Source of the DNA: Somniosus microcephalus
Lineage: Eukaryota
Direction of reading: 5' to 3'
NCBI GenBank assembly: GCA_052327205.1
Contig: CM126204.1
Location: 220,286,001-220,350,000 of the forward strand
DNA: 64,000 nucleotides
Shown here: one piece after another, positions 2,011 through 54,900 of the stretch
Position numbering within the stretch: the first letter of the stretch is position 1
Layout: every line of letters starts with the position of its first letter
Position numbers and translations under genes: made by a program
The notes under the pieces: model-generated
The model's database searches: none
Seen by the model: the letters and a program-made list of their open reading frames with translations, nothing else
What the model was told of the DNA's origin: nothing

Positions 2011-2157
2011 TCCCCCTTTCTTTGAGGTTTAACAAAATCAATATCAATCAACTTTCAAGAAAACAATAAAGATAATATCAGTAACACTTTTGTTAGTGCT
2101 CTATAAACATAAACATTTTCAAAACAGTCAACACATTTTCAAAGCTTTACATTGTAC

Positions 2158-3636
2158 TCAAATATTAAGTCTATCAGGCTTTTTTACTTCACGTGTGGAT
2201 CTTCTCAACACGGGTAAGTCTGATGTGTCTTCATGAGATTGTTCTGGCGGTGAATGACAAGATGCAGTTGCGGCATTGTCATCAATCTGTTCTTGTATAG
2301 ATCGAGGTCTCCTAGCGATCTTTGCTTGGAGAGGGTTTCAGTGTTTCCTTCACTCTTCATGCCATAACTCTCAATGTAGTCAATGCACTCTCGAAAAACC
2401 GCTGGCAGCTGGATCCCATCATACAGCATAGTCCTCTCAGCAGCCTCAGCTAATGGAACACCAAAGATTGGACTGAGGGAAGAAGGAGTATCCACCGGAA
2501 CTGCTTCCTGCTCTGCTGCAGGCTTCTTCTTTTTCTTTTTCTCTTTCCACTGCTTAACAACATCTGCTGCGGTTATATCTTTGGACTTTTTCTCCTTGTG
2601 TTTTTTCTCTTTGTGCTTTTCTTTGACCTTAAAGTCTTTTTCTTTATTCTTGGAGAAACTAGGCTTTTTGAAGACATGGATACCCTTTGGCCTTTCCATC
2701 CTTGATGGGCTCTCTGCTTCATCACCTGAGTCATCTGGTCTGCTTATGGCACAGTTTATACGGTAGACTCTCTTGACCAGTTCTAAGTCTTCACAAGCTT
2801 TGTCACCTAGTATCGAAATCAAGTCTTTCAGCCACAACAGAAAACATGAGATGATGCACTTTGTCTTTGACTGCCACTTTGAGTCTGCATACACCTAAGC
2901 TATCTATTTTCTGTCCATTATAGTCCTTCAGTAGTACTGACTTTTTCTCTATTTTGGGCTTTTCTTTCATATTGTTAATGTCACTCATACTGATTAAGTT
3001 TGCTTTTGCCCCAGTGTCCAGACTCAATGTAACTAATGCTCCATTTATCTGCAGTGGGATCATCCATTTGTCCACTTTTACTGCATTGACTTTATGTTCA
3101 GCATTGTCCATTTCTGAGGGCTGCACATTTTCTGTATCTTTTTTGATATCGTCACTTGACACCATTCCTACAAAAAATGTCTCACTTAAATCAGTGTCCT
3201 CAATCACATTAACTTGTTTCCCTTTCGTTGTTTTTACTTTTGAAAAGCATTGTTTGGCAAAGTGATTCTTTCCATTACATTTTGAGCACATTTTTCCAAA
3301 CGCTGGGCATTGTCTTAACTGGTGGTTGTAACCACAGTGTTTACAATTAAAAATTTCATCCTCCGATTGCTTTTCATTTCTGTTCTGCCCACGTTTCTTC
3401 CCCTTGTAGGACACAGCACCGACAGCAGCATTATCACTCATTACATTCGCATCATTATTGATTTCACTGAAAGTCTTCGCGTGCTTTTGAGCTAGCTCGC
3501 TGGCTTGGCATATTTTCACCGCATTTTCCAAATTTAGTTCGGTTTCTCTCAACAGACGTTCCCTGATGTTTTTATCATGAATACCAAACACAATCTGGTC
3601 ATGAATCATGGATGCTTTGAGCTCAGAGAAATTATG
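2158..3636 (-). pseudogene. Element C internal ORF: partial gag, Zn knuckle, protease, captured RALBP1 fragment, integrase C-terminal tail (frameshifted)
   Basis: MIHDQIVFGI gag; CSKCNGKNHFAKQC knuckle; LDTGA protease; SILGDKACEDLELVKRV protease end after a +1 frameshift near 2817; ends LRRSTREVKKPDRLNI-stop before the PPT. Confidence 0.8.
2346..2735 (-). pseudogene. RALBP1: Transduced RALBP1/RLIP76 fragment (Lys-rich region plus start of RhoGAP domain)
   Basis: SGDEAESPS...KGIHVFKKPSFSK...KSKDITAADVVKQWKEKKKKKKP...PIFGVPL...YDGIQLPAVFRECIDYIESYGMK matches vertebrate RALBP1 as recalled. Confidence 0.9.
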
Positions 3637-24804: not shown

Positions 24805-25516
24805 CCAAGTTGAGAAGTGAACATGTTCTGTACTCTGTTAAGTCTGTGAATTATTTAGTTAATTAAGACACAGACTAATGAGTAACAATAAAAACAGGTC
24901 TTTACTGGTTGGAGGTAGGGACTATACGTAGGTCTTTACTTCATGCCCACAGGCGGGAACTGAGGGGAGATCAGTACCCACAGTACTATTTATACCCCTA
25001 TGGCCAGGAGTGGTACTGCGTATCACTACGCCCTACAAGTAGTGCAGTCCTGTCCATAGGTTCAAAGTAGCACACATATTACATACACAACATTCCTCCC
25101 TTCCTAGCTTTACAGTCATCTCCCCATTTAACATAACGTAATAACATATATACATATATAACTTCAGGTTTACATAACTGTGGTAAACCACGTTCACTAT
25201 CGTATCACTGTTAGTAGTTAGCACTGTTCACCACTGTTCGTTATAACTGTATCACTGACCACTATTGTATCACGGTACGAGGTCGCCTCTTGCCACACTG
25301 CTATACCTGGGATGACCACTGCCGACTCCGCCTTGGCTCCACCCACCAGGCCAGGTATAAAGGTGAGCGACTGGCTGGTATTCCTCCTGCTTGGATCGGA
25401 TCACCCACGAGAGTGGGCTCTGTTATTTAGTCAATAAAAACCTTTAGTCACCTTCGTAACTCTTCGCCTTTTATTGGAGGAATTGATAGGTATATCAATT
25501 TTATTGACTAAATTTA

Positions 25517-28500
25517 ATGATGTCCGACAACGAGTCACAACCGGCGGAGGAGCCACCAGCGCAGCTCCCAGGAGCACAGCCACACCAGCCAGCTTGGCTG
25601 CGAGCCCTCAGACCGCCGTACCTGGACCTGAACCCACGAGCAGCAAACTCAGCCGCAGACTTTAAACACTGGCTGGTCTGCTTCGAATCATACCTGAGAG
25701 AATCCAGCGTCCCTCAGGCATCCAAACTAAGTGTCCTGCAGGCACAACTGAGCCCGAGAGTATACACTCTCATCGAGGACATGACTACCTACGAGACCGC
25801 CATCAACCTGCTGAAACAGAAGTACCGGACCCCGGTAAACTACATGTACGCTAGGCACCTCCTAAGATCACGGCCGCAACAGCCAGGAGAATCAGTAGCC
25901 GAATTCTCACAGGCGCTATATGCACTCGCCAGGAACTGTGAGTTTAAATCGGTGTCGGCAGCCGAAAATACTGAAGATAATATCCGCGACGCATTCCTGA
26001 AAGGCCTACGGTCCGAGTACTCACGGCAAAGACTGCTGGAAGCTAAAGACCTCAGCATGGAAAAAGCTGAAGTCCTCGCTATCTCCCTGGAAGTGGCCCA
26101 CCAAGATCAGGAAGCATTCACCAGGTACTGCTCGCGACCCTGGGACTCGGGCCCGACCCCTACCACAGCACCCTTCCCAGCGCCGCCCCCGGGACCTACC
26201 TCTGCGTCGGCGTCCCGGACCCGACCGGCCCCGCCACCCCCGGCACCGGCCCCGACATCGGGCATCCGCGATCGGGCCGCCGGCTGTTTTTTTTGTGGCC
26301 AGGAGAAGCACCCGAGGTCGCGCTGCCCAGCCAAGAACTCCATATGTAAAACCTGCCTGAAGAAAGGCCACTTCTCCAAGGCCTGCAGGAGCGGATCCTC
26401 AGAGGCCAGCAGTGCCGCATGCGAACTATGGGGGCGGCCATCTTCGTTTAGGGCAACTGAGGCCAGCATCCCCACACATGAGTCATGGGGGCGGCCATCT
26501 TTGTTTAGGGCACCTGAGGCCAGCATCCCCACACATGAGTCATGGGGGCGGCCATCTTTGTTTAGGGCAACTGAGGCCAGCATCCCCACACATGAGTCAT
26601 GGGGGCGGCCATCTTTGATTAAGGCAACCGACCCCAATAGTGCCTCATGGGGCCCTACCTCGTGGGAGACGCCATTTTACTCACCACGCCCGACCGCCTC
26701 GCCCGCAGATGACAACGACTCGCTCAGCTACACACTAGCTTCCGTCACCCTGGACCAAGCCCGCCCGCACCATCTGTCCAAGTCAATGATGGACATCAAA
26801 GTGAACGGCCACGCCACGACCTGCCTGTTCGACAGCGGAAGCACGGAGAGCTTCATCCACCCAGACACGGTGAGCCACTACTCCCTCTCTGTCCTACCAA
26901 CGCGCAGCCGAATCTCGATGGCATCGAGGTCCCACGCCACGGACATCAGCGGCTACTGTGTCGTGACCCTGTCGGTTAAGGGCACGGAGTATAAAAACTT
27001 TAAACTCCTCGTCCTCCCCCATCTCTGCGCTGCCGTCCTACTAGGGCTGGACTTCCAATCCCACCTCCAAAGCGTAACCCTAGCATACGGTGGACCCCTC
27101 CCCCCACTCACAGTCAACAACCAGCAAACGTTAAACCGCCCACCGCGTAACACCTGCAGCCTCTCCACCCTCAAGGTCCCGCCACCCTCTCTGTTTGCTA
27201 ACCTTACCCCTGACTGCAAACCCGTCGCTACCAAAAGCAGGCGGTATAGCGCCGGGGACAGAGCCTTCATTAGCTCTGAGGTGCGGCGCCTCCTGAAAGA
27301 GGGCATTATCGAGGGGAGCAGCAGCCCCTGGCGTGCCCAGGTCGTAGTCGTAAAGACCGGCGATAAAAACCGCCTGGTCATCGACTACAGCCAGACCATA
27401 AACAGATATACCCAGCTGGACGCATACCCCCTCCCCCGCATATCTGACATGGTCAATCAGATTGCACAGTATAAAGTATTCTCGACCATCGACCTGAAGT
27501 CGGCCTACCACCAACTCCCTATCCACCCTGAGGACCGCCAGTATACCGCCTTCGAGGCGAATGGGCGCCTATACCACTTCCTTAGGGTCCCCTTCGGTGT
27601 CACTAATGGGGTCTCGGTCTTCCAAAGGGAGATGGACCAGATGGTTGACCAGAACGAACTGCAGGCTACATTCCCCTACCTAGATAACGTCACTATCTGC
27701 GGCCGCGACCGGCAGGAACATGACGCGAATCTGGAGAAATTCCTCCGTACGGCCCAACGGCTGAACCTCACCTACAATAAGGAGAAATGCGTGTTTAACA
27801 CCACGCGCCTTGCCATCCTCGGCTGCGTAGTGGAGAACGGAATCATCGGCCCCGACCCAGAAAGAATGCGCCCCCTCATGGAGCTACCCCTCCCCCACTG
27901 CCCTAAAGCACTTAGGAGAACCCTGGGGCTTTTCGCCTACTATGCCCAATGGGTACCCAATTACGCGGACAAAGCCAGACCCCTCCTGAAAGCCACTTCC
28001 TTCCCCCTCACGGAGGAGGCGTGCGCGGCCTTCTCCCTCATTAAGGGAGACATAGCCAAGGCCACGATGCACGCAGTGGACGAGTCCATCCCCTTTCAGG
28101 TGGAGAGCGACGCATCCGACTTCGCCTTAGCCGCCACCCTAAACCAGGAGGGGAGGCCAGTGGCCTTCTTCTCAAGGACCCTACAGGGCCCCGAGATCCG
28201 ACATTCGTCGGTCGAGAAAGAGGCCCAGGCGATCGTGGAGGCAGTACGGCGCTGGAGGCACTACCTGGCAGGCAAACGATTTACCCTCCTCACCGACCAG
28301 CGTTCGGTGGCTTTCATGTTTAATAACAAGCTGAAGGGCAAAATCAAGAATGACAAGATTTTGAGATGGAGAATCGAGCTCTCCACCTACGATTATGAGA
28401 TCTTGTACCGGCCAGGCAAGCTGAACGAATCCCCTGATGCCCTTTCACGAATGACATGCGCCAGCGCGCATATCGATAGGCTTCAGACCCTCCACGACCA

Positions 28501-29542
28501 GCTCTGCCACCCCGGAGTCACCAGACTCTACCATTTCATTAAGGCCCGCAACCTGACCTACTCCATCGAGGAGGTCAGGACCATGACCAGGAACTGCCAG
28601 ACCTGTGCGGAGTGCAAACCGCACTTCTATAGGCCGGACCGAGCAAGCCTGATCAAGGCCACCCGCCCCTTCGAGCGCCTGAGCATCGACTTTAAGGGGC
28701 CCCTCCCGTCCTCTGACCGTAATGTGTACTTCCTCAACATCGTTGATGAGTACTCCCGTTTCCACTTTGCCTTCCCCTGCCCCGACATGACCAGTAGCAC
28801 GGTCATTAAGTGCCTGAATGCCCTCTTCGCCTTGTTCGGGTTCCCGAACTATATACACAGCGACCGGGGCTCCTCCTTCATGAGCGAGGAACTCCGGCAA
28901 TTCCTCCTAGAGAGAGGTATTGCAGCAAGCAGGACCACCAGCTACAACCCCAGAGGTAACGGTCAGGTGGAAAGAGAGAACGCGACGGTATGGAAGGCCG
29001 TCCTCTTAGCCTTAAAGTCTAAGGGCCTCCCAACCTCCCGCTGGCAAGAAGTCCTCCCGACAGCGCTGCACTCCATCCGGTCATTACTTTGCACGGCCAC
29101 TAACACCACCCCCCATGAACGAATGTTCGTTTTCCCCAGGAAGTCGACTACGGGAACCACTCTACCAACCTGGCTGACCGCCCCGGGGCCGGTCTGGCTG
29201 CGGAAACACGTGAGGACCCATAAAACGGACCCCCTGGTCGAGAGGGTGAACCTCCTGCACGCCAACCCCCAGTACGCCTACGTGGCGTACCCAGACGGGC
29301 GGGAGGACACTGTCTCCCTACGAGACCTCGCACCCTCAGCCGATCCGGAAACACCGCCACCACCCCCCCCAACCTCAGTCCAGGTAGACGGCATGCCGGA
29401 ACCCCACGAGCCCTCGCCGACCACGCAAACACCAGCATCAACACCGGATAAGGCACCAGCACCGGATAAGGCAACACCACCGCTGCGGCGATCGGAGAGG
29501 CTTACGAAGCCTCCGGACAGACTGACCTACCAGAATTGGTAG
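25517..29542 (+). CDS. Element E gag-pol polyprotein, 1341 aa (Gag, 2 CCHC, PR, RT, RNaseH, IN)
   Basis: Uninterrupted ORF; CKTCLKKGHFSKAC, FDSGS, RVPFGVTNG, YLDN, SDAS...SVEKEA, HHCC, DEYSR...HSDRG...GNGQVER. Confidence 0.95.
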   Translation: MMSDNESQPAEEPPAQLPGAQPHQPAWLRALRPPYLDLNPRAANSAADFKHWLVCFESYLRESSVPQASKLSVLQAQLSPRVYTLIEDMTTYETAINLLKQKYRTPVNYMYARHLLRSRPQQPGESVAEFSQALYALARNCEFKSVSAAENTEDNIRDAFLKGLRSEYSRQRLLEAKDLSMEKAEVLAISLEVAHQDQEAFTRYCSRPWDSGPTPTTAPFPAPPPGPTSASASRTRPAPPPPAPAPTSGIRDRAAGCFFCGQEKHPRSRCPAKNSICKTCLKKGHFSKACRSGSSEASSAACELWGRPSSFRATEASIPTHESWGRPSLFRAPEASIPTHESWGRPSLFRATEASIPTHESWGRPSLIKATDPNSASWGPTSWETPFYSPRPTASPADDNDSLSYTLASVTLDQARPHHLSKSMMDIKVNGHATTCLFDSGSTESFIHPDTVSHYSLSVLPTRSRISMASRSHATDISGYCVVTLSVKGTEYKNFKLLVLPHLCAAVLLGLDFQSHLQSVTLAYGGPLPPLTVNNQQTLNRPPRNTCSLSTLKVPPPSLFANLTPDCKPVATKSRRYSAGDRAFISSEVRRLLKEGIIEGSSSPWRAQVVVVKTGDKNRLVIDYSQTINRYTQLDAYPLPRISDMVNQIAQYKVFSTIDLKSAYHQLPIHPEDRQYTAFEANGRLYHFLRVPFGVTNGVSVFQREMDQMVDQNELQATFPYLDNVTICGRDRQEHDANLEKFLRTAQRLNLTYNKEKCVFNTTRLAILGCVVENGIIGPDPERMRPLMELPLPHCPKALRRTLGLFAYYAQWVPNYADKARPLLKATSFPLTEEACAAFSLIKGDIAKATMHAVDESIPFQVESDASDFALAATLNQEGRPVAFFSRTLQGPEIRHSSVEKEAQAIVEAVRRWRHYLAGKRFTLLTDQRSVAFMFNNKLKGKIKNDKILRWRIELSTYDYEILYRPGKLNESPDALSRMTCASAHIDRLQTLHDQLCHPGVTRLYHFIKARNLTYSIEEVRTMTRNCQTCAECKPHFYRPDRASLIKATRPFERLSIDFKGPLPSSDRNVYFLNIVDEYSRFHFAFPCPDMTSSTVIKCLNALFALFGFPNYIHSDRGSSFMSEELRQFLLERGIAASRTTSYNPRGNGQVERENATVWKAVLLALKSKGLPTSRWQEVLPTALHSIRSLLCTATNTTPHERMFVFPRKSTTGTTLPTWLTAPGPVWLRKHVRTHKTDPLVERVNLLHANPQYAYVAYPDGREDTVSLRDLAPSADPETPPPPPPTSVQVDGMPEPHEPSPTTQTPASTPDKAPAPDKATPPLRRSERLTKPPDRLTYQNW
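26402..26655 (+). repeat. 57-bp coding tandem repeat (SWGRPSLFRATEASIPTHE) in the gag-protease linker
   Basis: About four near-identical 19-aa units. Confidence 0.9.
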
Positions 29543-30138
29543 TACACTTCACCCCGCCGGACTTAATTCTAAACAAGGGGTGAATGTGGTAAACCACGTT
29601 CACTATCGTATCACTGTTAGTAGTTAGCACTGTTCACCACTGTTCGTTATAACTGTATCACTGACCACTATTGTATCACGGTACGAGGTCGCCTCTTGCC
29701 ACACTGCTATACCTGGGATGACCACTGCCGACTCCGCCTTGGCTCCACCCACCAGGCCAGGTATAAAGGTGAGCGACTGGCTGGTATTCCTCCTGCTTGG
29801 ATCGGATCACCCACGAGAGTGGGCTCTGTTATTTAGTCAATAAAAACCTTTAGTCACCTTCGTAACTCTTCGCCTTTTATTGGAGGAATTGATAGGTATA
29901 TCAATAACAGAATAACATAGATACATAGATAACTTCATGTCAAAACAGATCACAGATTCAGTCTCTGTGGAAAACAGTTCACAGATTCAATCTCTGTGGT
30001 GTAGTCGGTTCACGTTGCTGGAGTGACTCATTCAATAGTCCTTCCATGGATTTAACAGTTTGAACTTCCGAACTGAATTGGCTCCGTTCGGAGGGACCAC
30101 GTGTGTGATCTGCTAGAGGTAATAATGGTTCAGATGGG

Positions 30139-32331
30139 TCATCTTCTGTTTCGACTTTTCCTTTTCTGCTTCTTGGAGACTCTCTGGGCTCCACTGTCAG
30201 CTGCCAGCTGCATGCGCAGTTCCTCCTTCTCTTCCTCCTTTTTCCGTAGTAGAGCCACCTTCTCCCGATGTTCCGTAGACTTTCGGTGCTCCTCCATGCT
30301 TTCTGTATGGTGGGAGTCGAAGTTACAAGTTGGGCAGGACAGGACATAGTAAAATTCGGTGTCGTCCTGATCTAAGCCAGTGAGAGGGTCTTCTATTTCC
30401 TCCATACCCAGCTGGGCGTTAGCCAGCTTTTGTTCCAAGTCCAGACATCTTTCCTGAAGAGACTTCTTCATGCGTACCTCTTCATCCAGCTTTTTCTGGG
30501 CTTTCAGCAAGTCGTTTACTAATGACCTCATTTGAGATTTTACTACTTCAACTTCTTTTGGAGATTGATTGATCGGACTATTCAATCCCTCTACCGGAGC
30601 AGCTGTTTCAGCGGTCTGTTGTTCTACGTTGACGTGAGTCAGCGTACTTTTGGCATCCAAGGGCTGCTCTGTTGCAGTCATCTCAGTCTGTGTTGCCACC
30701 TCAGCTCTTCCAATAACCTTTGAGAGCTCCGAACCCCTTTCGTTTGAATATTGAAGTTCGTGTTCAAGTTTTTCCCATTTCAGAGTCCTGTCCTTCAGCA
30801 TATGCAGGAGTTGGCTGACCGTTAACTCCTCTGACATCAGATGTTTTGTGTGCTCCTGCTCCATTTTCTCCATCAGCTGCTTCTGTTGTCTTTCCAGATT
30901 CTCCAACTCTATATCAAAGAACTCTTTCGTTGCATTCAACTCTTGCTCAAAACGGCGAAGCATTTGTTCTAATTGCTGTTGTAGTTTGAAATGGAGTTGA
31001 GTTCGAGCCCGGTGTCCCTCAGAAATGGGCACATCAGTAGACTTGCCAGACTCAGAATCCACAGTTAAACTATGTTGTTGTTGCTCAGTGGAATTCTGTG
31101 CTGAAACTTTGTCTTTTGCACCTGAGTTGGGCTTACCATCATCCGTTCCAGAGTCTGGGCCGACTATCTTCACCGAGTTCTCACTCGTTATTGTTTGTAG
31201 GAAATGCCAGTCCATATTCATTTTCCTAATCCACTCCCGTCCTAGTAGTGGAGGACCTCCTTCAGATATCACATATAAGTCCATTATTTGACTGTCTTCG
31301 CCCTTGTGGACCACTGCAACCTCTATTTTCCCGATGGGGTACACTCTTTGCCCTGTGTATGTTTTCAATATAATCCCCGTATCCTGTAGGGGAATATGTT
31401 GGAATAACTTTCCGTAATCTTTCTTATTTATGACCGTCAATGCCGATCCAGTGTCCAATTCCAGTTTTACTTGGACTCCTTCTATCTGAAGAGTGACCCA
31501 AATTATCTGGAGGTCTGCACCCTTACCAGCGTTGAGTACTCTTAAGCTAGCCAGTTCATTACTGCTAGCGTCTGAATCGGACTCCTGTTCGGTCACCTTG
31601 TGTACCTTTGCGTATTTTCCTTGCGGTGACTTCTTGTTGCTGGTCTTCTTCCCTGACCTGCATACTCTAGCTATATGTCCAAGCCTACCACAAGTTCTAC
31701 ATTCTTGGTTTTTAAACCAACACTGGTTCTGATCATGCGTTGTCTTTCCACAACGATAACATTTGCCAGAACTCACACCCAATTTGTGTGCACTGAGCTC
31801 CGGTGACCGTAGCTGCATTACTGCCGTGCCTCTCGCTGCGGCTTCGTGTGCTGCTGCCATAGTGACCGCCTTCTCAAGCGTCAGCTCATTCTCCTCGAGC
31901 AGTCGCTTTTGTGTATCCTGTTTAAATAAACCACACACAAATTTGTCTCGTAGTGCATCTCTCAGTCCCGTTCCAAACTGGCAATATTTCGCTAATTTAC
32001 GCAATTCCAGCAAATATTCAGCATTGCTTTCATGCTGTAGCTGCCTTCTGTCATAAAATTTAAATCGTTCCACTAGCATCAGCGGCGTGGGGTTTAGATG
32101 ATCTTTCAGGACAGTAACAATCTCATCGAACGTCTTATCCGCCGGTTCATCTGGTGATAACAGGTGTTTCAATTGCCCGTATGTCTTCGCACCCTATAAA
32201 TTTAATAATGTTAGAGCTTTATCTTGGTCACAAATTTTATTGGCCTTACAATAATTTTTTACTCTTTCAACATATATGGCCCAATCTTCGAGGTCACTAT
32301 CAAAGGTGCTAATATTCCCGTGTTTAGGCAT
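30139..32331 (-). CDS. Element D gag-protease fused to host-derived STK10, OPTN and DNAJC21 fragments (one premature TAG at 32194-32196)
   Basis: ATG at 32331 (MPKHGNIS) is in frame with the 677-aa ORF; knuckles, LDTGS protease, then coiled coils and a C2H2 finger; a second frame ends PQRLNL-stop at 29979, typical of a Gypsy pol terminus. Confidence 0.85.
30142..30405 (-). pseudogene. DNAJC21: Transduced DNAJC21-like C2H2 zinc finger and basic segment
   Basis: [11 protein letters not shown]-x12-H-x5-HREKVALL...[10 protein letters not shown] versus recalled DNAJC21 LYDDLYCPAC...HEKSKKHREMVALL...QKLSKKQKKK. Confidence 0.7.
30409..30840 (-). pseudogene. OPTN: Transduced optineurin-like coiled-coil segment
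   Basis: EELTVSQLL...AEVATQTE...[37 protein letters not shown] versus recalled [12 protein letters not shown]...SEIETQTE...[37 protein letters not shown]. Confidence 0.8.
30845..31020 (-). pseudogene. STK10: Transduced STK10/LOK (SLK family) coiled-coil segment
   Basis: HRARTQL...[42 protein letters not shown] versus recalled STK10 [42 protein letters not shown]. Confidence 0.85.
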
Positions 32332-33999
32332 TGTAGATTTGCAATTTCTCAGATTTTATTTTCTTTACTTGCTATCAAAAATGGCGGCTTCCCGCTCTTG
32401 CCGTTGTCCTCCGCCCACAAAATGGCGGTTTTCCCGCGCTTGGCGGTCTTCACCCGTCCCCCGATGCCGTCTCCCTTCAGCCCCCGAGTGCGGCCCTTAT
32501 CTTCGCCGCGATCGCCCGAGTGCGGCCCTTATCAGCGGATGTGATCGATGGCCCGGCTGCGCCTCGCACTTGAAAGCGGCCCGGCCCTTATCAGTGCTTG
32601 CGATCGATGGCCCGGCTGCGCCCCTCACTTCAAAGCGGCCCGGCCCTTATCTGCCGATCGCTATCGCCCTGTACCTCTCTCTTCCCCAGTCCTGTCTTCT
32701 ACTCCGGTTCACAAGCTGATGGAGGCTTCAGGGTCCTAATGCCTGTCGCTTCCAGTGGGTTGGTGAGTGGTGAGGTTTGAAACCTCTCTTCAACCGCCGT
32801 AGGGTAAGAACCTGACTCGTCGCCAGTGTTAAGTCTGTGAATTATTTAGTTAATTAAGACACAGACTAATGAGTAACAATAAAAACAGGTCTTTACTGGT
32901 TGGAGGTAGGGACTATACGTAGGTCTTTACTTCATGCCCACAGGCGGGAACTGAGGGGAGATCAGTACCCACAGTACTATTTATACCCCTATGGCCAGGA
33001 GTGGTACTGCGTATCACTACACCCTACAAGTAGTGCAGTCCTGTCCATAGGTTCAAAGTAGCACACATATTACATACACAACATACTCGAGCTGCATTTC
33101 TGTGTGTCCTATTTTTACTCATCATCAAAATAGTGTGCACATGAATGAGTGTGTACATTAAGTTCACTGATCAGAAGTTATACCTTCAGATGCTCTCTGC
33201 CAAGCCACCTAAAAGACACTGCAACAGTATATTGTAGCAAAGGGCAAGTTACAGAGACATGGTTCATAGAGCTTCTCTCTTCATTAGGAAACAGGTATAT
33301 TGTGGGCAGATATTGCAAAGCTCTGTTGCCAGTGTGGAGCCTTGCTTGTGCGAGTGCAGGCTGCACTGTTGTAGTTCTATCTACACTAATGTCCAGCAAG
33401 GCACTAAGCCAGCAGAGGAACCTTGCAATTTCTGCCCTATTGCATTAGATCTGAGGTTATGGTATATCAGAGGGTGCTGTGAGCAGCAAATCTGGTCCTG
33501 AAATTGGCAGGAGGCGAGTTGATCTCCAGACCCACACTTATGTGTCAAGGATACCCCATTGATACAAAGTTAGGGTGTAGGGCTTCTGAGTGCCAGTCTG
33601 AGGACCACTCGCTGCTTCCACCTCGTCATGACCCTGTCTGAAATCCCAGGGACGAGGTTATCAACACATTGGGGACAGGTGCCCACACATGTAGCCATGC
33701 AAGAGGGGGCTCTGCTCGCTTCACTTATTGTGGAGCTCACATGCAGCCCAGTGTGCCACCCACACATGCTCTGAGCAGATGTAGGTGCCACTGGGCCAGT
33801 CGGAGGCATGTCTGGCGGGATTCCTCGAGTGGCCCAGGAGCAACGCTCGGACAATTTCGCAAACCGTTGCCAGGACATAAGGAAGGGCAGGCGGGCGGGG
33901 GAAACAGAATCAGCCTCTGCTGAATCTCCATCAGAATCCCAACCCCCATGAGGGAGCTGAATTTCTGGGCGAGGGACTCTTTCTGCTCCTGGTGTCACA

Positions 34000-44619: not shown

Positions 44620-45909
44620 ATTATTCAGCCCTTAGGAGAAATGTGAGTTAAGATGAGCTAGAAAGGACAGAATTCTAGGCATCTGGTGCTTGACAATCCT
44701 TAATCGATGTCTTTGAAGAATAGTGACCAGAATAGATAAAGGGAATGCAGTGACACTATGTGGTTCATGTGAATTATCAAAAAGCATTGATGGGGTCTCC
44801 GAGGAGACTTATGAAAGGATAATTGCGCATGGAATTAATGGCAGTGTGATCACATGGATAGAGAGATGGTTGGGGGTCAGAAAGCAAATGCTAGGGGTAA
44901 TAAAATGTTTCTCAAGCAGTGAAGATGTAATGAGTACACAGGCAAAATACTGTGGATGCTGGAAATCTGAAATATAAACATAAAATGCTCAAAATACTCA
45001 GCAGGTCAAACAGCATCTGTTCCACAGGAATCTGGGCTGGGGACTTATTTATGATATAAAATATAAATGATCCAGACTTGGAAATTGAGAGAATAATATT
45101 TGCTAATGAAGCTAAATTGGAGGGCGTGTGGCAAATTGTGAGGATTGCAAAAGACTGCAGGAGGACATAGGCAGTCTCGTAAGATGGGCAGGTAGATGGA
45201 GGATGCAGTTCAATGCAGAGAAATTTTTGGCAGATTATTCCACATTCTCACTGCCCTCTGTGTAAAGAAATATTTTTAAATTTCCCCTTATTCCTGTTTG
45301 TGATCATCTTAAATTAGTGGCCTTAACATCTCCCCAACCCATTTGGGAAATAAGAACAGGGATTGGAAATCCATCTTCGTGGTTAGAGTTGAAACACTGT
45401 AGAGGAGCAGAGGTTTGTGGGTCACTAAAGGAAGCAGTCCAAGTAGATAAGAATATAAAAAAGGCAAACAGAATCTTTGACTATGTATCTACAAGCAGAG
45501 AATACAAAAGCAAGGAAGTAATATTGAGTTCAGCCAATTCCTGAGTCAAGACCTCAGTGCAAGAGCTAAATTAGGCTGCAATTGGAGTTTTCTGCACAGT
45601 TTTGGACACCAATGATATGAAGGGTATAAATGTAATGGACAAGGTGTAGCATAGATTCACCAGGATGTCACCAGGGATGAAAAGAAAAGGAGCTTGAAAA
45701 GGTAGGTTTTTTTCTAACAGGGGCTGAGAAGGTCGAGGTCCTCCAGATTATAAAAGGTTCTGAGCAGGTAAATAGTGATCGATGGTTTCCATTGGTTGGG
45801 GAGATGTTAAGGACACCAATTTAAGATGATCACAAACAGGAATAAGGGGAAATTTAAAACATTTCTTTACACAGAGGGCAGAGAGAATGTGGAATAATCT
45901 GCCAAAAAT
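44620..45909 (+). mobile_element. Degenerate CR1 LINE RT and 3' remnant with internal inverted duplication
   Basis: TRIDKGNAV, AHGINGSVITWIERWL, KKANRIF...EYKSKEVIL, FFTQRAERMWNNLP. Confidence 0.8.
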
Positions 45910-48900
45910 GAATGCAGGAGAGAAGGATTAGACTAGGTGCAATATTAAAGAGAATGGGGAGTGAGCAGGAGAGGAGGATTAGACAGGGTGTGAGCAAAAG
46001 AGAATGGGGAGTGAGCAGGAGAGGAGGTTTAGACTGGGTGCGATATTAAAGAGAATGGGGAGTGAGCAAGAGAGGAGGATTAGACTGGGTGTGATATTAA
46101 AGAGAATGGGGAGTGAGCAGGAGAGGAGCATTAGACTGGGTGTGATATTAAAGAGAATGGGGAGTGAGCAGGAGAGAAGGATTAGACTGGGTGTGATATT
46201 AAAGAGAATGGGGAGTGAGCCGGAGAGGCGGATTAGACTGGGTGTGATATTAAAGAGAATGGGGAGTGAGCAGGAGAGGGTGATTAGACTGGGTGTGATA
46301 TTAAAGAGAATGGGGAGTGAGCAGGAGAGGAGGGTTAGACTGGGTGTGATATTAAAGAGAGTGGGGAGTGAGCATGAGAGGAGGATTAGACTGGGTGTGA
46401 TATTAAAGAGAATGGGGAGTGAGCAGGAGAGAAGGATTAGACTGGGTGTGATATTAAAGAGAATGGGGAGTGAGCAGCAGAGGAGGATTAGAATGGGTGT
46501 GATATTAAAGAGAATGTGGAGTGAGCAGGAGAGGAGGATTAGACTGGGTGTGATATTAAATAGAATGGGGAGTGCGCAGGAGAGGAGGGTTAGACTGGGT
46601 GTGATATTAATGAGAATGGGGTGTGAGCAGGAGAGGAGGATTAGACTGGGTGTGATATTAAAGAGAATGGGGAGTGCGCAGGAGAGGAGGATTAGACTGG
46701 GTGTGATATTAAAGAGAGTGGGGAGTGAGCAGGAGAGGAGGATTAGACTGGGTGTGATATTAATGAGAATGGGGTGTGAGCAGGAGAGGAGGATTAGACT
46801 GGGTGTGATATTATTGAGAATGGGGTGTGAGCATGAGAGGAGGATTAGACTGGGTGTGATATTATTGAGAATGGGGAGTGAGCAGGAGAGGAGGATTAGA
46901 CTGGGTGTGATATTAAAGAGAATGGGAAGTGAGCAGGAGAGGATGATTAGACTGGGTGTGATATTATTGAGAATGGGGAGTGAGCAGGAGAGAAGGATTA
47001 GACTGGGTGTGATATTATTGAGAATGGGGTGTGAGCGGGAGAGGAGGATTAGACTGGGTGTGATATTAAAGATAATGGGGAGTGAGCAGGAGAGAAGGAT
47101 TAGACTGGGTGTGATATTAAAGATATTGGGGATAGTGCAGGAGTGGAGGATTAGACTGGGTGTCATATTAAACAGAATGGGGAGTGAGCAGGAGAGGAGG
47201 ATTAGACTGGGTGTGATATTAAAGAGAATGTGGAGTGAGCAGGAGAGGAGGATTAGACTGGGTGTGATATTAAAGAGAGTGGGGAGTGAGCAGGAGGAGG
47301 AGGATTAGACTGGGTGTGATATTAAAGAGAGTGGGGAGTGAGCAGGAGAGGAGGATTAGACTGGGTGTGATATTAACGAGAATGGGGAGTGAGCAGGAGA
47401 GGAGGATTAGACTGGGTGTGATATTAATGAGAATGGGGAGTGAGCAGGAGAGGAGGATTAGACTGGGTGTGATATTAATGAGAATGGGGAGTGAGCAGGA
47501 GAGGAGGATTAAACTGGGTGTGATATTAATGAGAATGGGGAGTGAGCAGGAGAGTAGGATTAGACTGGGTGTGATATTAAACAGAATGGGGAGTGAGCAG
47601 GAGAGGAGGATTAGACTGGGTGTGATATTAAAGGGAGTGGGGAGTGAGCAGGAGTGGAGGATTAGACTGGGTGTGATATTAATAAGAATGGGGAGTGCGC
47701 AGGAGAGGAGAATTAGAATGGGTGTGATATTAATGAGAATGGGGAGTGAGCAGGAGAGGAGGATTAGATTGGGTGTGATATTAATGAGAATGGGGAGTGA
47801 GCAGGAGAGGAGGATTAGACTGGGTGTGATATTAATGAGAATGGGGAGTGAGCAGGAGAGGAGGATTAGACTGGGTGTGATATTAAAGGGAATGAGGAGT
47901 GAGAAGGAGAGAAGGATTAGACTGGGTGTGATATTAAAGAGAATGAGGAGTGAGCAGGAGAGGAGGATTAGACTGGATGTGATATTAAAGGGAATGAGGA
48001 GTGAGAAGGAGAGAAGGATTAGACTGGGTGTGATATTAAAGAGAATGAGGAGTGAGCAGGAGAGGAGGATTAGACTCGGTGTGATATTCAAGAGAATGAG
48101 GAGTGAGCAGGAGAGGAGGATTAGACTGGGTGTGATATTAAAGAGAATGTGGAGTGAGCAGGAGAGGAGGGTTAGACTGGGTGTGATATTAATGAGAATG
48201 GGGTGTGAGCAGGAGAGGAGGATTAGACTGGGTGTGATATTAAAGAGAATGGGGAGTGAGCAGGAGAGGAGGGTTAGACTGGCTGTGATATTAATGAGAA
48301 TGGGGTGTGAGCAGGAGAGGAGGATTAGACTGGGTGTGAAATTATTGAGAATGGGGAGTGAGCAGGAGAGGAGGATTAGACTGGGTGTGATATTAAAGAG
48401 AATGGGGAGAGAGCAGGAGAGGAGGATTAGACTGGGTGTGATATTAAAGAGAATCGGGAGTGAGCAGGAGAGAAGGATTAGACTGGGTGTGATATTAAAG
48501 AGAATGGGGAGTGAGCAGGAGAGGAGGATTAGACTCGGTGTGATATTAAAAAAAATGGGGTGGGAGCAGGAGAGGAGGATTAGACTGGGTGTGATATTAA
48601 AGAGAATGGGGAGTGAGCAGGAGAGGAGGATTAGACTGGGTGTGATATTAAAGAGAATGGGGAGTGAGCAGGAGAGGAGGATTAGACTGAGTGCAATATT
48701 AAAGAGAATGGGGAGTGAGCACGAGAGAAGGATTAGACTGGGTGTGATATTAAAGAGAGTGGGGAGTGAGCAGGAGAGGAGGATTAGACTGGGTGTGATA
48801 TTAAAGAGAATGGGGAGTGAGCAGGAGAGGAGGATTAGATTGGGTGTGATATTAAAGAGAATGGAGAATGAGCAGGAGAGGAGGATTAGACTGGGTGCGA

Positions 48901-51900
48901 TATTTAAGAGAATGGGGAGTGAGCAGGAGAGGAGGATTAGACTGGGTGTGATATTAAAGAGAATGGGGAGTGAGCAGGAGAGGAGAATTAGAATGGGTGT
49001 GTTATTAAAGAGAATGGGGAGTGAGCAGGAGAGGAGGATTAGACTGGGTGTGTTATTAAAGAGAATGGGGAGTGAGCAGGAGAGGAGGATTAGACTGGGT
49101 GTGATATTAAAGAGAATGAGGAGTGAGCAGGAGAGGAGGATTAGACTGGGTGTGATATTAAAGAGAATGGGGAGTGAGCAGGAGAGGAGGATTAGACTGG
49201 GTGTGTTATTAAAGAGAATGGGGAGTGAGCAGGAGAGGAGGATTAGACTGGGTGTGATATTAAAGAGAATGGGGAGTGAGCAGGAGAGGAGGATTAGACT
49301 GGGTGTGATATTAAAGAGAATGGGGAGTGAGCAGGAGAGGAGGATTAGACTCCGTGTGATATTAAAGTGAATGGAGAATGAGCAGGAGAGGAGGATTAGA
49401 CGGGGTGTGATATTAAAGAGAATGCGGAGTGAGCAGGAGAGGAGGATTAGACTGGGTGTGATATTGAAGAGAATGGGGAGTGAGCAGGAGAGGAGGATTA
49501 GACTCCGTGTGATATTAAAGAGAATGGAGTGTGAGCAGGATAGGAGGATTAGACTGCGTGTGATATTAAAGAGAATGGGGTGTGAGCAGGAGAGGAGGAT
49601 TAAACTGGGTGTAATATTAAAGAGAATGGGGAGTGAGCAGGAGAGGAGGATTAGACTCGGTATAATATTAAAGAGAATGAGGTGTGGGCAGGAGAGGAGG
49701 ATTAGACTGGGTGCGATATTAAAGAGAATGGGGAGTGAGCAGGAGAGGAGGATTAGACTGGGTGTGATATTAATAAGAATGGGGAGTGCGCAGGAGAGGA
49801 GAATTAGAATGGGTGTGATATTAATGAGAATGGGGAGTGAGCAGGAGAGGAGGATTAGACTGGGTGTGATATTAATGAGAATGGGGAGTGAGCAGGAGAG
49901 GAGGATTAGACTGGGTGTGATATTAATGAGAATGGGGAGTGAGCAGGAGAGGAGGATTAGACTGGGTGTGATATTAAAGGGAATGAGGAGTGAGAAGGAG
50001 AGAAGGATTAGACTGGGTGTGATATTAAAGAGAATGAGGAGTGAGCAGGAGAGGAGGATTAGACTGGGTGTGATATTAAAGGGAATGAGGAGTGAGAAGG
50101 AGAGAAGGATTAGACTGGGTGTGATATTAAAGAGAATGAGGAGTGAGCAGGAGAGGAGGATTAGACTGGGTGTGATATTAATAAGAATGGGGAGTGCGCA
50201 GGAGAGGAGAATTAGAATGGGTGTGATATTAATGAGAATGGGGAGTGAGCAGGAGAGGAGGATTAGACTGGGTGTGATATTAATGAGAATGGGGTTTGAG
50301 CAGGAGAGGAGGATTAGACTCGGTGTGATATTCAAGAGAATGAGGAGTGAGCAGGAGAGGAGGATTAGACTGGGTGTGATATTAAAGAGAATGTGGAGTG
50401 AGCAGGAGAGGAGGGTTAGACTGGGTGTGATATTAATGAGAATGGGGTGTGAGCAGGAGAGGAGGATTAGACTGGGTGTGATATTAAAGAGAATGGGGAG
50501 TGAGCAGGAGAGGAGGGTTAGACTGGCTGTGATATTAATGAGAATGGGGTGTGAGCAGGAGAGGAGGATCAGACTGGGTGTGAAATTATTGAGAATGGGG
50601 AGTGAGCAGGAGAGGAGGATTAGACTGGGTGTGATATTAAAGAGAATGGGGAGTGAGCAGGAGAGGAGGATTAGACTGGGTGTGATATTAAAGAGAATCG
50701 GGAGTGAGCAGGAGAGAAGGATTAGACTGGGTGTGATATTAAAGAGAATGGGGAGTGAGCAGGAGAGGAGGATTAGACTCGGTGTGATATTAAAAAAAAT
50801 GGGGTGGGAGCAGGAGAGGAGGATTAGACTGGGTGTGATATTAAAGAGAATGGGGAGTGAGCAGGAGAGTGGGATTAGACTGGGTGTGATATTAAAGAGA
50901 ATGAGGTGTGAGCAGGAGAGGAGGATTAGACTGGGTGTGATATTAAAGAGAATGGGGTGTGAGCAGGAGAGGAGGATTAGACTGGGTGTGATATTAAAGA
51001 GAATGGGGAGTGAGCAGGAGAGGAGGATTAGACTGAGTGCAATATTAAAGAGAATGGGGAGTGAGCACGAGAGAAGGATTAGACTGGGTGTGATATTAAA
51101 GAGAGTGGGGAGTGAGCAGGAGAGGAGGATTAGACTGGGTGCGATATTAAAGAGAAAGAGGTGTGAGCAGGAGAGGAGGATTAGATTGGGTGTGATATTA
51201 AAGAGAATGGAGAATGAGCAGGAGAGGAGGATTAGACTGGGTGCGATATTTAAGAGAATGGGGAGTGAGCAGGAGAGGAGAATTAGAATGGGTGTGTTAT
51301 TAAAGAGAATGGGGAGTGAGCAGGAGAGGAGGATTAGACTGGGTGTGTTATTAAAGAGAATGGGGAGTGAGCAGGAGAGGAGGATTAGACTCCGTGTGAT
51401 ATTAAAGTGAATGGAGAATGAGCAGGAGAGGAGGATTAGACGGGGTGTGATATTAAAGAGAATGCGGAGTGAGCAGGAGAGGAGGATTAGACTGGGTGTG
51501 ATATTGAAGAGAATGGGGAGTGAGCAGGAGAGGAGGATTAGACTGGGTGTGTTATTAAAGAGAATGGGGAGTGTGCAGGAGAGGAGGATTAGACTCCGTG
51601 TGATATTAAAGAGAATGGAGTGTGAGCAGGATAGGAGGATTAGACTGCGTGTGATATTAAAGAGAATGGGGTGTGAGCAGGAGAGGAGGATTAAACTGGG
51701 TGTAATATTAAAGAGAATGGGGAGTGAGCAGGAGAGGAGGATTAGACTCGGTATAATATTAAAGAGAATGAGGTGTGGGCAGGAGAGGAGGATAAGACTG
51801 GGTGTGTCTTTAAAGAGAATGGGGTGTGAGCAGGATAGGAGGATTAGACTGGGTGTGATATTAAAGAGAATGTGGAGTGAGCAGGAGAGGAGGATTAGAC

Positions 51901-54900
51901 TCGGTGTGATATTAAAGAGAATGAGGTGTGGGCAGGAGAGGAGGATTAGACTGGGTGCGATATTAAAGAGAATGGGGAGTGAGCAGGAGAGAAGGAATAG
52001 ACTGGGTTTGATATTAAGGAGAATGGGGAGTGAGCAGGAGAGGAGGATTAGACAGGGTGTGATATTAAAGAGAATGAGGAGTGAGCAGGAGAGGCGGATT
52101 AGACTGGGTGTGATATTAAAGAGAATGGGGAGTGAGCAGGAGAGAAGGATTAGATTGGGTGTGATATTCAAGAGAATGGGGAGTGAGCAGCAGAGGAGGA
52201 TTAGACTGGGTGTGATATTAAAGAGAATGTGGAGTGAGCAGGAGAGGAGGGCTAGGCTGGGTGTGATATTAAATAGAATGGGGAGTGCGCAGGAGAGTAG
52301 GGTTAGACTGGGTGTGATATTAATGAGACTGGGGAGTGAGCAGGAGAGGAGGATTAGACTGGGTGTGATATTAAAGAGAATGGGGAGAGCGCAGGAGAGG
52401 AGGGTTAGACTGGGTGTGATATTAATGAGAATGGGGTGTGAGCAGGAGAGGAGGATTAGACTGGGTGTGATATTAAAGAGAGTGGGGAGTGAGCAGGAGA
52501 GGAGGATTAGACTGGGTGTGATATTATTGAGAATGGGGAGTGAGCAGGAGAGAAGGATTAGACTGGGTGTGATATTATTGAGAATGGGGAGTGAGCAGGA
52601 GAGGAGGATTAGACTGGGTGTGATATTAAAGAGAGTGGGGAGTGTGCAGGAGAGGAGGATTAGACTGGGTGTGATATTAAAGAGAGTGGGGAGTGAGCAG
52701 GAGAGGAGGATTAGATTGGGTGTGATATTAAAGAGAATGGGCAGTGAGCAGGAAAGGAGGATTAGACTGTGTGTGATATTAAAGAGAGTGGGGATAGAGC
52801 AGGAGTGGAGGATTAGATAGGGTGTCATATTAAAGAGAATGGGGAGTGAGCAGGAGAGGAGGATTAACCTGGGTGTGATATTAAAGAGAATGGGGAGTGA
52901 GCAGGAGAGGAGGATTTGACTGGGTGTGAAATTAAAGAGAATGTGGAGTGAGCAGGAGAGGAGGATTAGACTGGGTGTGATATTAAAGAGAATGTGGAGT
53001 GAGCAGGAGAGGAGGATTAGACAGCGTGCGATATTAAAGAGAATGGGGAGTGAGCAGGAGAGGAGGATTAGACTGGGTGTGATATTAAAGAGAATGAGGT
53101 GTGAGCAGGAGAGGAGGATTAGACTGGGTGTGATATTAAAGAGAATGGGGTGTGAGCAGGAGAGGAGGATTAGACTGGGTGTGATATTAAAGAGAATGGG
53201 GAGTGAGCAGGAGAGGAGGATTAGACTGAGTGCAATATTAAAGAGAATGGGGAGTGAGCACGAGAGAAGGATTAGACTGGGTGTGATATTAAAGAGAGTG
53301 GGGAGTGAGCAGGAGAGGAGGATTAGACTGGGTGCGATATTAAAGAGAAAGAGGTGTGAGCAGGAGAGGAGGATTAGATTGGGTGTGATATTAAAGAGAA
53401 TGGAGAATGAGCAGGAGAGGAGGATTAGACTGGGTGCGATATTTAAGAGAATGGGGAGTGAGCAGGAGAGGAGGATTAGACTGGGTGTGATATTAAAGAG
53501 AATGGGGAGTGAGCAGGAGAGGAGAATTAGAATGGGTGTGTTATTAAAGAGAATGGGGAGTGAGCAGGAGAGGAGGATTAGACTGGGTGTGTTATTAAAG
53601 AGAATGGGGAGTGAGCAGGAGAGGAGGATTAGACTCCGTGTGATATTAAAGTGAATGGAGAATGAGCAGGAGAGGAGGATTAGACGGGGTGTGATATTAA
53701 AGAGATTGCGGAGTGAGCAGGAGAGGAGGATTAGACTGGGTGTGATATTGAAGAGAATGGGGAGTGAGCAGGAGAGGAGGATTAGACTGGGTGTGTTATT
53801 AAAGAGAATGGGGAGTGTGCAGGAGAGGAGGATTAGACTCCGTGTGATATTAAAGAGAATGGAGTGTGAGCAGGATAGGAGGATTAGACTGCGTGTGATA
53901 TTAAAGAGAATGGGGTGTGAGCAGGAGAGGAGGATTAAACTGGGTGTAATATTAAAGAGAATGGGGAGTGAGCAGGAGAGGAGGATTAGACTCGGTATAA
54001 TATTAAAGAGAATGAGGTGTGGGCAGGAGAGGAGGATTAGACTGGGTGCGATATTAAAGAGAATGGGGAGTGAGCAGGAGAGGAGGAATAGACTGGGTGT
54101 GAAATTAAAGAGAATGGGGAGTGAGCAGGAGAGGAGGGTTAGACTGGGTGTGATATTAAAGAGAATGGGGAGTGAGCAGGAGAGGAGGATAAGACTGGGT
54201 GTGTCTTTAAAGAGAATGGGGTGTGAGCAGGATAGGAGGATTAGACTGGGTGTGATATTAAAGAGAATGAGGTGTGGGCAGGAGAGGAGGATTAGACTGG
54301 GTGCGATATTAAAGAGAATGGGGAGTGAGCAGGAGAGGAGGATTAGACTCCGTGTGATATTAAAGAGAATGGAGTGTGAGCAGGATAGGAGGATTAGACT
54401 GCGTGTGATATTAAAGAGAATGGGGTGTGAGCAGGAGAGGAGGATTAAACTGGGTGTAATATTAAAGAGAATGGGGAGTGAGCAGGAGAGGAGGATTAGA
54501 CTCGGTATAATATTAAAGAGAATGAGGTGTGGGCAGGAGAGGAGGATTAGACTGGGTGCGATATTAAAGAGAATGGGGAGTGAGCAGGAGAGGAGGAATA
54601 GACTGGGTGTGAAATTAAAGAGAATGGGGAGTGAGCAGGAGAGGAGGGTTAGACTGGGTGTGATATTAAAGAGAATGGGGAGTGAGCAGGAGAGGAGGAT
54701 AAGACTGGGTGTGTCTTTAAAGAGAATGGGGAGTGAGCAGGAGAGGAGGATTGGACTCGGTGTGATATTAAAGAGAATGAGGTGTGGGCAGGAGAGGAGG
54801 ATTAGACTGGGTGCGATATTAAAGAGAATGGGGAGTGAGCAGGAGAGAAGGAATAGACTGGGTTTGATATTAAGGAGAATGGGGAGTGAGCAGGAGAGGA

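Follow-up and report, generated by a model that had tools for sequence, protein, structure and literature searches.

The window, a 64,000-nt stretch of Somniosus microcephalus DNA, holds an LTR element, termed D, whose features lie on the minus strand. Its 5′ LTR (32827..33083) and 3′ LTR (24836..25092) are both 257 nt long, have TG..CA termini, and differ by one mismatch; they are bounded by the unstranded 5-bp copies of a target site duplication (TSD), GAGTA (upstream 33084..33088, downstream 24831..24835). A motif resembling a primer binding site (PBS; 32816..32825) starts 1 base past the LTR and keeps its position in other D copies, with substitutions now and then, and a polypurine tract (PPT; 25093..25111) adjoins the 3′ LTR. 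These are the near-identical LTRs, TSD, PBS, and PPT that a preliminary description of this DNA had claimed. The gag gene (31498..32331, ATG at 32331), with two CCHC knuckles (~31770-31657), is followed by an aspartic protease (31190..31497) with a DTG motif and weak Pfam matches, which are stronger in relatives than in D. Pfam searches of D for RT, RNase H (RH), and integrase (IN) domains found none, only the Gag knuckles and the protease, in agreement with the claimed absence of RT, RNaseH, and the integrase core. The integrase C-terminal remnant (29979..30026) ends in PQRLNL, in another frame as previously described; the integrase of a full gag-pol relative, L021, has the same ending.

The span 24836..33083 had been described as one element. 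Its ends are indeed those of the outer LTRs, but 25179..29903 is a separate gag-pol element of gypsy type, inserted in the 3′ UTR of D on the plus strand, in the opposite orientation. This nested element has 319-nt LTRs identical to each other, a 5-bp TSD, and one 1,344-aa Gag-PR-RT-RH-IN frame (25508-29542). D proper is 3,518 bp, the intact 4.7-kb nested element making up the rest. The claim of an open frame fails for the window copy, in which codon 46 of Gag is a stop (32194..32196, in frame); 15 of 18 other full-length D copies are unbroken.

Past the protease, the ORF runs on for ~346 aa rather than the ~290 aa first reported, and it opens with an additional piece, from STK10 exon 9 (31016..31186, aa ~401-479, 86-88% nucleotide identity to the host exon). 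This piece is in frame, has a 69-nt internal deletion, and is the start of the captured lap discussed below. Next comes the PKK coiled coil of STK10 exons 11/12 (30839..31020, aa 616-675), joined without an intron at 30934/30933, for which the proposed STK10 identity is upheld by Pfam (PKK, E=1e-9) and by a 77% match to shark STK10 616-675. OPTN coding exons 5-8 (30395..30846, aa 226-384) follow with three intronless exon joins and, consistent with the earlier assignment, match shark OPTN 226-384 at 71%. Their end overlaps an 18-nt remnant of STK10 exon 8 (30388..30405), a microhomology deletion scar. The DNAJC21 piece (30142..30387) comprises a C2H2 finger, an acidic helix, and a basic tail, and is closed by a stop codon (30139-30141). 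A last STK10 piece, from exon 8/9 (30027..30147, aa ~326-388), is the end of the captured lap and sits past the stop codon, out of frame. The original inventory of STK10 cargo, correct for the coiled coil, had missed the first and last of these pieces.

Searches with D's own DNAJC21 segment (word-indexed and phmmer) gave zero or only generic zinc-finger matches. The proposed identity holds through the relative L052, which is less diverged than D, matches DNAJC21 (top E=5e-18), and is identical to the host DNAJC21 exon over 31 codons, and through two located host exons to which D aligns (30201-30298 and 30143-30181). The exon encoding the first ~90 nt, with the first half of the finger, was sought in the host by pattern and in 60 kb around the exons already located, without success, and a PDB sequence search with the D cargo as query returned 0 matches. 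All four zinc ligands (C-x2-C-x12-H-x5-H), said earlier to survive, are present in 16 of the 16 D ORFs examined. The whole-protein search with host OPTN was flooded by element copies, and host genes were located via their non-captured parts; the host assembly carries extra bases in two OPTN exons. D is 80-94% identical to the host exons, and the suggested check of exon joins found introns absent for STK10, OPTN, and DNAJC21 alike. Partners have 7-12 nt in common at the cargo junctions, and cargo entry shows microsimilarity at the switch points and no poly(A) tail.

The junction between STK10 and the integrase tail has 9,309 matches in the genome and 0 for a reversed control; among the first 100 matches listed, 59 carry D's spelling. 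In the 18 full-length D copies collected, as the preliminary description had advised, a 5-bp TSD accompanies 17, and the LTR mismatches number 0-2 in the 15 that are readable. D is multi-copy, and the claim that it is recently mobile and non-autonomous stands: it lacks RT, RH, and IN, yet has many dispersed recent copies. Paired LTRs, TSD, PBS-like motif, and PPT identify an LTR retrotransposon, and the domain order PR-RT-RH-IN of L021, with no env, is that of Ty3/gypsy (Metaviridae-type) elements. The Gag-PR of L021 is 88% identical to that of the oldest subfamily, S, and 83% to that of D, making L021 a candidate autonomous partner, though the D LTR gave no match to the LTR of L021. Judged by its sequence, D is a young non-autonomous Ty3/gypsy element, and the original observation is confirmed as real and larger than first noted.

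Subfamily S encodes, in one frame, Gag-protease, a short RT stub, STK10 aa 386-704 followed by aa 291-388, and the integrase tail. The two STK10 segments join precisely at splice sites and together make up a circular permutation of coding exons 8-12 that is 1,245 nt long to the base, with a single 12-nt site serving as both its start and its end. Host exons 8-12 likewise total 1,245 nt, contain no stop, and occur once each in the locus. The back-splice junction is base-exact in 20 of 20 S loci, agreeing with the host donor and acceptor, and is also present in locus L119. Compared with the full gag-pol relative, the host site used at both ends of the lap agrees at 11 of 12 nt with the RT end and at 7 of 8 with the integrase end. 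Neither the flanking exon 7 nor the exon after 12 was matched in 30 loci. The single start/end site, the exact length, and the back-splice junction together point to one lap of a circular RNA, and a circular or back-spliced origin of the STK10 unit is very probable. Contigs from two public runs, which we guess to be RNA, display only the linear order of the host exons and, on the element, a joint that jumps 1,245 nt backward. Among the datasets listed as containing the element, none is on record as RNA. Runs X1 and X5 had zero gag cover and are uninformative in either direction. No paper naming circSTK10 was found in a literature search.

The same junction would be left by a linear exon-repeat or trans-spliced RNA containing exons 8-12 twice, from which sequence alone does not distinguish a circle, or the unit may derive from a cDNA circle that entered, by a single crossover, an element previously deleted between its two LDE motifs. 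In the parent the motif stands at either end of pol, which would explain entry and exit at the same site without run-off. Non-colinear junctions of this kind generally arise by back-splicing, no genomic duplication of exons was found in the host STK10 locus, and no cargo-less 1,245-nt skip occurs among the joints listed. Published accounts describe, in the passages concerned, other routes to non-colinear junctions (PMC4897178) and trans-spliced RNAs mistaken for circRNAs (PMC10450196). Taken together, we consider an origin other than circular RNA unlikely.

The later steps can be read from nested common junctions, in an architecture map of 30 loci plus six extra loci chosen by junction spelling, not by ORF. 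The S form was followed by a 417-nt deletion, after which OPTN exons 3-8 took the place of the back-splice junction, and another deletion came next. DNAJC21 was inserted after OPTN, its out-of-frame 3′ junction being compensated by a 13-nt deletion, and a later net gain of 7 nt let the ORF terminate in DNAJC21's own basic tail. The six extra loci yield intermediates, one of which keeps the back-splice junction despite the 417-nt deletion; D itself has lost this junction. A tree of the STK10 codons in common nests D beside L052/L054, while sister branches took titin-like Ig repeats and LanC-like pieces; all subfamilies examined contain the PKK coiled coil. RALBP1 counts among the other cargoes of the family, Pfam and PDB searches with the L053 insert gave no match, and PF21884 matches were seen on C17. 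D's gag-protease and LTR differ from those of preceding forms, and gag dS is 0.6-0.85 versus 0.14-0.18 for the cargo. D's gag, being far from that of the ancestral subfamilies, was probably swapped in, and the cargo persisted through changes of gag, LTR, and 3′ tail.

A serial template-switch history is almost certain from these junctions, and D probably belongs, as a late and very successful branch, to a non-autonomous gypsy family that began when a circular RNA of the host was captured. The preliminary description had invoked serial mRNA capture by template switching. The pieces are spliced, serial, and joined at 7-12 nt of microhomology, and the microhomology at the 3′ end of DNAJC21 is consistent with a linear spliced mRNA, but the founding unit is back-spliced rather than a piece of mRNA. 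We propose that RT, while synthesising the minus strand, switched at the integrase tail from the element RNA to circSTK10 (exons 8-12) through a microhomology common to both templates, copied one circuit through the back-splice junction, and switched back at the RT N-terminus of the element, where the same motif occurs. RNase H destroys the template behind RT, and this degradation would halt synthesis after one lap. The element would then make Gag-PR-cargo, borrowing RT and integrase in trans.

Selection had been deduced from diverged cargo kept open in a young insertion. This argument is weak, since copies with 0-2 LTR mismatches stay open anyway and the window copy is broken; the better evidence is frame keeping across the lineage and retention of the zinc ligands, the amino-acid signal being mixed. 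In the D line, 12 of the 12 junctions and indels that precede the last ~30 codons are in frame, the null chance being ~0.45-0.55 per microhomology (0.5^12 ~ 2e-4). The tally was made post hoc, most O/E loci were drawn from a protein search that is itself frame-biased, and the three events located at the 3′ end of DNAJC21 are out of frame. The dN/dS check proposed earlier gave an omega of 0.38-0.54 (about 0.4-0.55) for D-lineage STK10+OPTN (p 0.0015-0.035; p=0.028 in a class-stratified test), but N:S in the cargo is 38:24 for private and 33.5:21.5 for fixed changes (Fisher p=1). As private mutations resemble the fixed ones and are themselves slightly N-poor (p=0.08), part of the reduction in omega may come from the mutation spectrum. 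In the finger, 15 of 19 non-ligand residues have changed versus none of the four ligands (p=0.008; p=0.004 stepwise over 11 copies). Two candidate signals were rejected: the D gag omega of 0.13-0.2 as evidence on the non-autonomous phase, gag appearing to be swapped, and positive selection on the finger (omega 2.1-3.8, p 0.04-0.3), which was too unstable.

That the open frame is under selection is quite likely, whereas selection on the amino acids of the cargo is modest and disputed. Our preferred reading is that selection would chiefly maintain one long open frame, for RNA stability or translation-coupled packaging, and that the coiled coils and zinc finger would be under a weaker but genuine constraint. 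Repeated trimming and replacement of the cargo suggest that no long piece is indispensable, and whether the cargo protein may have some function for the element is about evenly balanced. With the same history, the cargo could be a true accessory protein, freed by the protease, that drove the expansion; its coiled coils, finger, and basic tail could serve particle assembly, RNA binding, nuclear targeting, or as a decoy for host factors (OPTN-dependent autophagy). The unchanged ligands amid a remodelled finger, the omega below 1, the ubiquitous PKK coiled coil, the native basic tail restored by the 7-nt gain, the survival of cargo through the other replacements, and the prevalence of D's spelling all favor this possibility. 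It is nevertheless the less probable one, given that the polymorphism control fails to separate fixed from private changes, that sister branches accept unrelated cargo, and that D has lost the LIR-like motif of OPTN that O/E retain.

Were only Gag-protease selected, the cargo would be neutral baggage, its frames open by chance and through the youth of the copies. An in-frame share per microhomology above one third, the equal N:S ratios, and the broken frames of three of the 18 full-length copies and of the window copy fit such baggage, which is made improbable by the uniformly in-frame upstream events, the compensation of an out-of-frame capture by the 13-nt deletion, and the four invariant ligands. 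Less likely still is cargo that acts as RNA, its host likeness evading small-RNA silencing or yielding small RNAs against STK10, OPTN, and DNAJC21. Some 9,300 copies resemble host genes, and LTR-borne retrocopies have been reported, in the relevant part of one study, to give silencing RNAs (PMC9674220), but frame and ligand retention would be left unexplained, and the drift of D from the host exons has eroded any mimicry.

The family is a base-exact record of one lap, two switch points, and the parent element, and a fossil record of a circRNA that does not depend on RNA-seq and its artefacts. It shows in detail how circular RNA can turn into genomic DNA and how new chimeric proteins form, its nested series building a chimeric ORF stepwise from at least three host genes across thousands of copies and remodelling a zinc finger around fixed ligands. 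It also offers a concrete, testable mechanism for the circRNA-to-genome route, left open in the part of the circRNA-pseudogene paper bearing on it (PMC4897178). In practical terms, annotation and read mapping of STK10, OPTN, and DNAJC21 in this genome will be confounded by ~9,300 copies that carry intronless STK10 sequence and, in many cases, pieces of the other two genes. More tentatively, and with rather less than even confidence, the gypsy lineage could be a standing platform that turns co-packaged host RNAs, preferentially circular ones, into accessory proteins, one chimera having been selected to ~9,300 copies. Exons 3-8 of OPTN are covered almost to their outer edges by the captured piece, the extent expected of a second near-full lap.

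Gene capture by LTR elements has precedents, as do pseudogenes derived from circRNAs; a literature search found no full-lap circRNA capture founding a mass family. Acutely transforming retroviruses are vertebrate LTR retroelements carrying captured host mRNA, and the analogy to oncogene transduction drawn earlier holds for the mechanics. It does not extend further: the relatives of D are gypsy-type with no env domain, the cargo has no kinase domain, and nothing points to transformation. Crocodilian ERVs with KIT-ligand and nectin3 are likewise vertebrate LTR retroelements with captured host mRNA, reportedly under purifying selection, but, as described in the sections of PMC4299795 on them, they are true retroviruses with single near-complete genes in 6-9 copies. 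From both, the shark family differs in being gypsy-type, without env, and in carrying fragments without catalytic domains. Maize Bs1 is also an LTR element with exonic pieces of three host genes and common switch points, but it is a plant element with 1-5 copies, and the passages on it mention no circular template (PMC5131818, PMC7264820). LTR-mediated retroposition as outlined by Tan et al. 2016 (PMC5131818) similarly puts spliced host RNA in place of part of the internal ORF, with microsimilarity at switch points and multi-gene chimeras remobilised as non-autonomous elements; relative to the elements in that account, one capture here led to ~9,300 copies, from a back-spliced start and with in-frame accretion onto Gag-protease. 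The mouse circRFWD2 pseudogenes (Dong et al. 2016, PMC4897178) share the diagnostic non-colinear exon junction, the absence of poly(A), LTR-enriched flanks, and relatives from which, as from D, the junction has disappeared. The main text on them reports 33 high-confidence copies, no defined element structure, and a mechanism called "mysterious", whereas in the shark family the complete lap, its two switch points, and the parent element are resolved, together with a fusion frame that is open.

Element D lies at 33083-24836 on the minus strand, with a 5-bp TSD and 257-nt LTRs that differ from each other at one base, in agreement with the preliminary description. Nested in it, at 25179-29903, is a separate element that has its own TSD, a Gag-PR-RT-RH-IN frame of 1,344 aa, and two 319-nt LTRs of identical sequence; D proper measures 3,518 bp. 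The D ORF extends from an ATG at 32331 to 30139 (minus strand). In the window copy, its Gag-protease frame is interrupted by a stop at codon 46, after which come two knuckles, the protease, and a cargo of ~346 aa, which replaces the earlier estimate of about 290 aa.

D is not single-copy: a search of the 6.45-Gb genome with its cargo DNA returned 483 candidates, and the 40 that were scored were all at 99-100%. Among 20 fetched copies, which are those nearest the window copy and hence biased young, 18 were full-length (3.5-3.7 kb), 17 of these 18 have a 5-bp TSD, 15 have an unbroken ORF, and 15 readable copies show 0-2 LTR mismatches, the other three being affected by an offset artefact. One copy (L025) combines near-identical LTRs with non-matching flanks and is possibly a recombinant between two insertions. 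The STK10/integrase-tail junction pattern had 9,309 genomic matches (reversed control, 0), with the D spelling in 59 of the first 100 listed.

In protein searches, the post-protease region had best E-values of 5e-50 for OPTN (71%) and 5e-17 for STK10, confirming two of the pieces named in the preliminary description. The best matches were shark proteins, so a cartilaginous-fish host is assumed, and none of the 120 matches listed contained a Gag or protease domain. By pairwise alignment, D contains STK10 402-479, STK10 616-675, and OPTN 226-384. The third segment, proposed to be DNAJC21, gave no identification when queried alone in protein searches, but the same segment in a relative (L052), through which it was identified, has DNAJC21 in all its named matches. 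Two host DNAJC21 exons were found on C1 of the same genome. Host STK10 and OPTN were located on C8 and C17, respectively, with each exon single-copy. D is 80-94% identical to the host exons and lacks introns at the exon junctions that it spans, of which one lies in STK10, three in OPTN, and one in DNAJC21, the OPTN piece spanning several exons as had been anticipated. Compared with the captured copies, the assembled host OPTN (C17 ~85.885 Mb, L068) has one extra base each in coding exons 5 and 6, which breaks its frame; these are probably homopolymer assembly errors, otherwise the host gene is a pseudogene. On C1, a gap of 2.1 Mb separates DNAJC21 exons 1-4 from the later exons (2.65-2.68 Mb and 4.79 Mb), and their order is incompatible with a single gene on the minus strand, suggesting mis-scaffolding or two copies.

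The oldest subfamily, S, was retrieved using an STK10 stretch absent from D. Of the 89 matches to this query, 87 reached an identity of at least 88% (one being the host exon), and 20 loci were fetched. Their frame reads Gag-PR, RT stub, STK10 386-704, STK10 291-388, and integrase tail, and in 20/20 loci the 704-to-291 join coincides exactly with the donor of host exon 12 and the acceptor of host exon 8, a back-splice junction as in circular RNA. Host exons 8-12 sum to 1,245 nt and are stop-free. Contigs of two public runs, taken as RNA by a guess, contain the normal exon order together with a joint that jumps 1,245 nt backward along the element. At locus L021, a D copy sits within a relative that has full gag-pol; in this relative the RT N-terminus and the integrase tail match the host STK10 site at 11/12 and 7/8 nt, respectively, and a single host site holds both cargo ends. 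Given the exact exon 12/8 join, the stop-free 1,245 nt, and the location of both ends at one host site, the cargo is therefore a single full lap of a circle that preserves the frame; RT would have copied circSTK10 in one pass, ended by RNase H run-off. Less probably, the circle was inserted after an earlier deletion between the two element motifs, or an exon-repeat RNA supplied the permuted STK10.

The series from S to D was ordered from 30 loci mapped on host exons and six loci chosen solely by junction spelling. The first step was a 417-nt deletion that retained the back-splice junction (L119); within its STK10 exon 8, this locus also gained an in-frame stretch of ~320 aa consisting of titin-like I-set Ig repeats (L119:2271-3230), titin Ig exons being a known circRNA source. 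Next, the back-splice junction gave way to OPTN sequence that begins at nt 9 of exon 3 and ends close to the exon 8 boundary. In L029-L046 the captured piece begins 8 nt into exon 3 and reaches to within ~12 nt of the exon 8 end, nearly edge to edge, as would be expected of a circle of exons 3-8; mapping on host exons revealed no retained back-splice junction in it. A further deletion and the DNAJC21 insertion followed. The 3' microhomology of DNAJC21 was out of frame and is offset by a 13-nt deletion, and a net 7-nt gain leads into the native DNAJC21 tail and then a stop (L114-L116 and D); D has two additional deletions. A tree based on the 101 STK10 codons in common places D beside L052/L054 on a long branch, with 34-35 differences from the host versus 2-4 in S. 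Its Gag-PR is 75-78% identical to those of S and the later subfamily E, and its LTR matches theirs over ~87 nt only, which points to a move of the cargo to a new chassis. Mean LTR mismatches are 2.4 in 16 S loci, 2.0 in 18 loci of the OPTN-carrying subfamilies O/E, and 0.9 in 15 D loci. Runs X19 and X23, from two studies and from organisms F and H (either of which may be the source), have contigs in every one of the 30 bins of the S internal region; the 417-nt and 90-nt skips are among them. Elsewhere, an S-type ORF (L097, 6614-4404, minus strand) has a LanC-like fragment (PF05147, E=3e-17) where the first half of Gag would stand, and L053 has an insert with a putative zinc finger downstream of the protease (3810-4310), without Pfam or PDB match, part of which we take to resemble the KMT2A/B taspase-site region.

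We conclude that the open frame is selected. On the D line, all 12 junctions and indels that precede the final ~30 codons are in frame in a list compiled post hoc, with most O/E loci coming from a frame-biased search, whereas about half of microhomologies would be expected in frame; at the 3' end of DNAJC21, three events are not in frame. Avoidance of the RNA decay that a long 3' UTR can bring would select for the frame with no requirement for protein function. Selection on the chimeric protein, as proposed earlier, is favored by D-lineage changes common to 16 copies (214 STK10+OPTN codons; omega 0.38-0.54, p 0.0015-0.035; stratified test, p=0.028) and by the zinc finger, in which 15/19 non-ligand residues but no ligand changed (p=0.008), stepwise through L114-L116. 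However, the N:S ratio of private mutations (38:24) is the same as that of fixed ones (33.5:21.5; p=1). Protein-level constraint on the cargo is thus probable but unproven. Overall, the observations of the preliminary description stand with corrections, and its interpretation holds in part and is extended.

A second LTR element region (1790-5278, minus strand) comprises a Gag-PR 80% like that of D, an RT start, a second Gag-PR-like block, a RALBP1 fragment, and a PPT-LTR end, with the frame shifted between protease and cargo in the window copy. The RALBP1 fragment (~2340-2740; PDB 2mbg, E=1e-18) presumably corresponds to nearly an entire RALBP1 exon and seems to have been captured independently. 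The PR/RT junction at 3720-4300 yielded 1,589 candidates (40 scored, 99-100%), which marks another very young, large family. At 45870-64000, a 51-nt unit is tandemly repeated ~350 times, with an extreme GC skew (~0.79).

LTR-mediated capture, multi-gene chimeras, and secondary mobilization are established by Tan 2016 (PMC5131818), and crocodilian ERV captures are described in PMC4299795. In Dong 2016 (PMC4897178), 33 pseudogenes of circRFWD2 are described, their flanks rich in LTR sequence, and the question of mechanism is left open; LTR structure around these copies, which its supplements may show, would lower the novelty of our findings. A literature search mostly confined to papers outside subscription found nothing on the S/D family or on a defined LTR element that captured a full lap of a circRNA. 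According to PMC7264820, the copy number of transduced ORFs is one or a few, and PMC5131818 gives one to five copies for Bs1, in contrast to the 9,309 junction matches of the S/D family.
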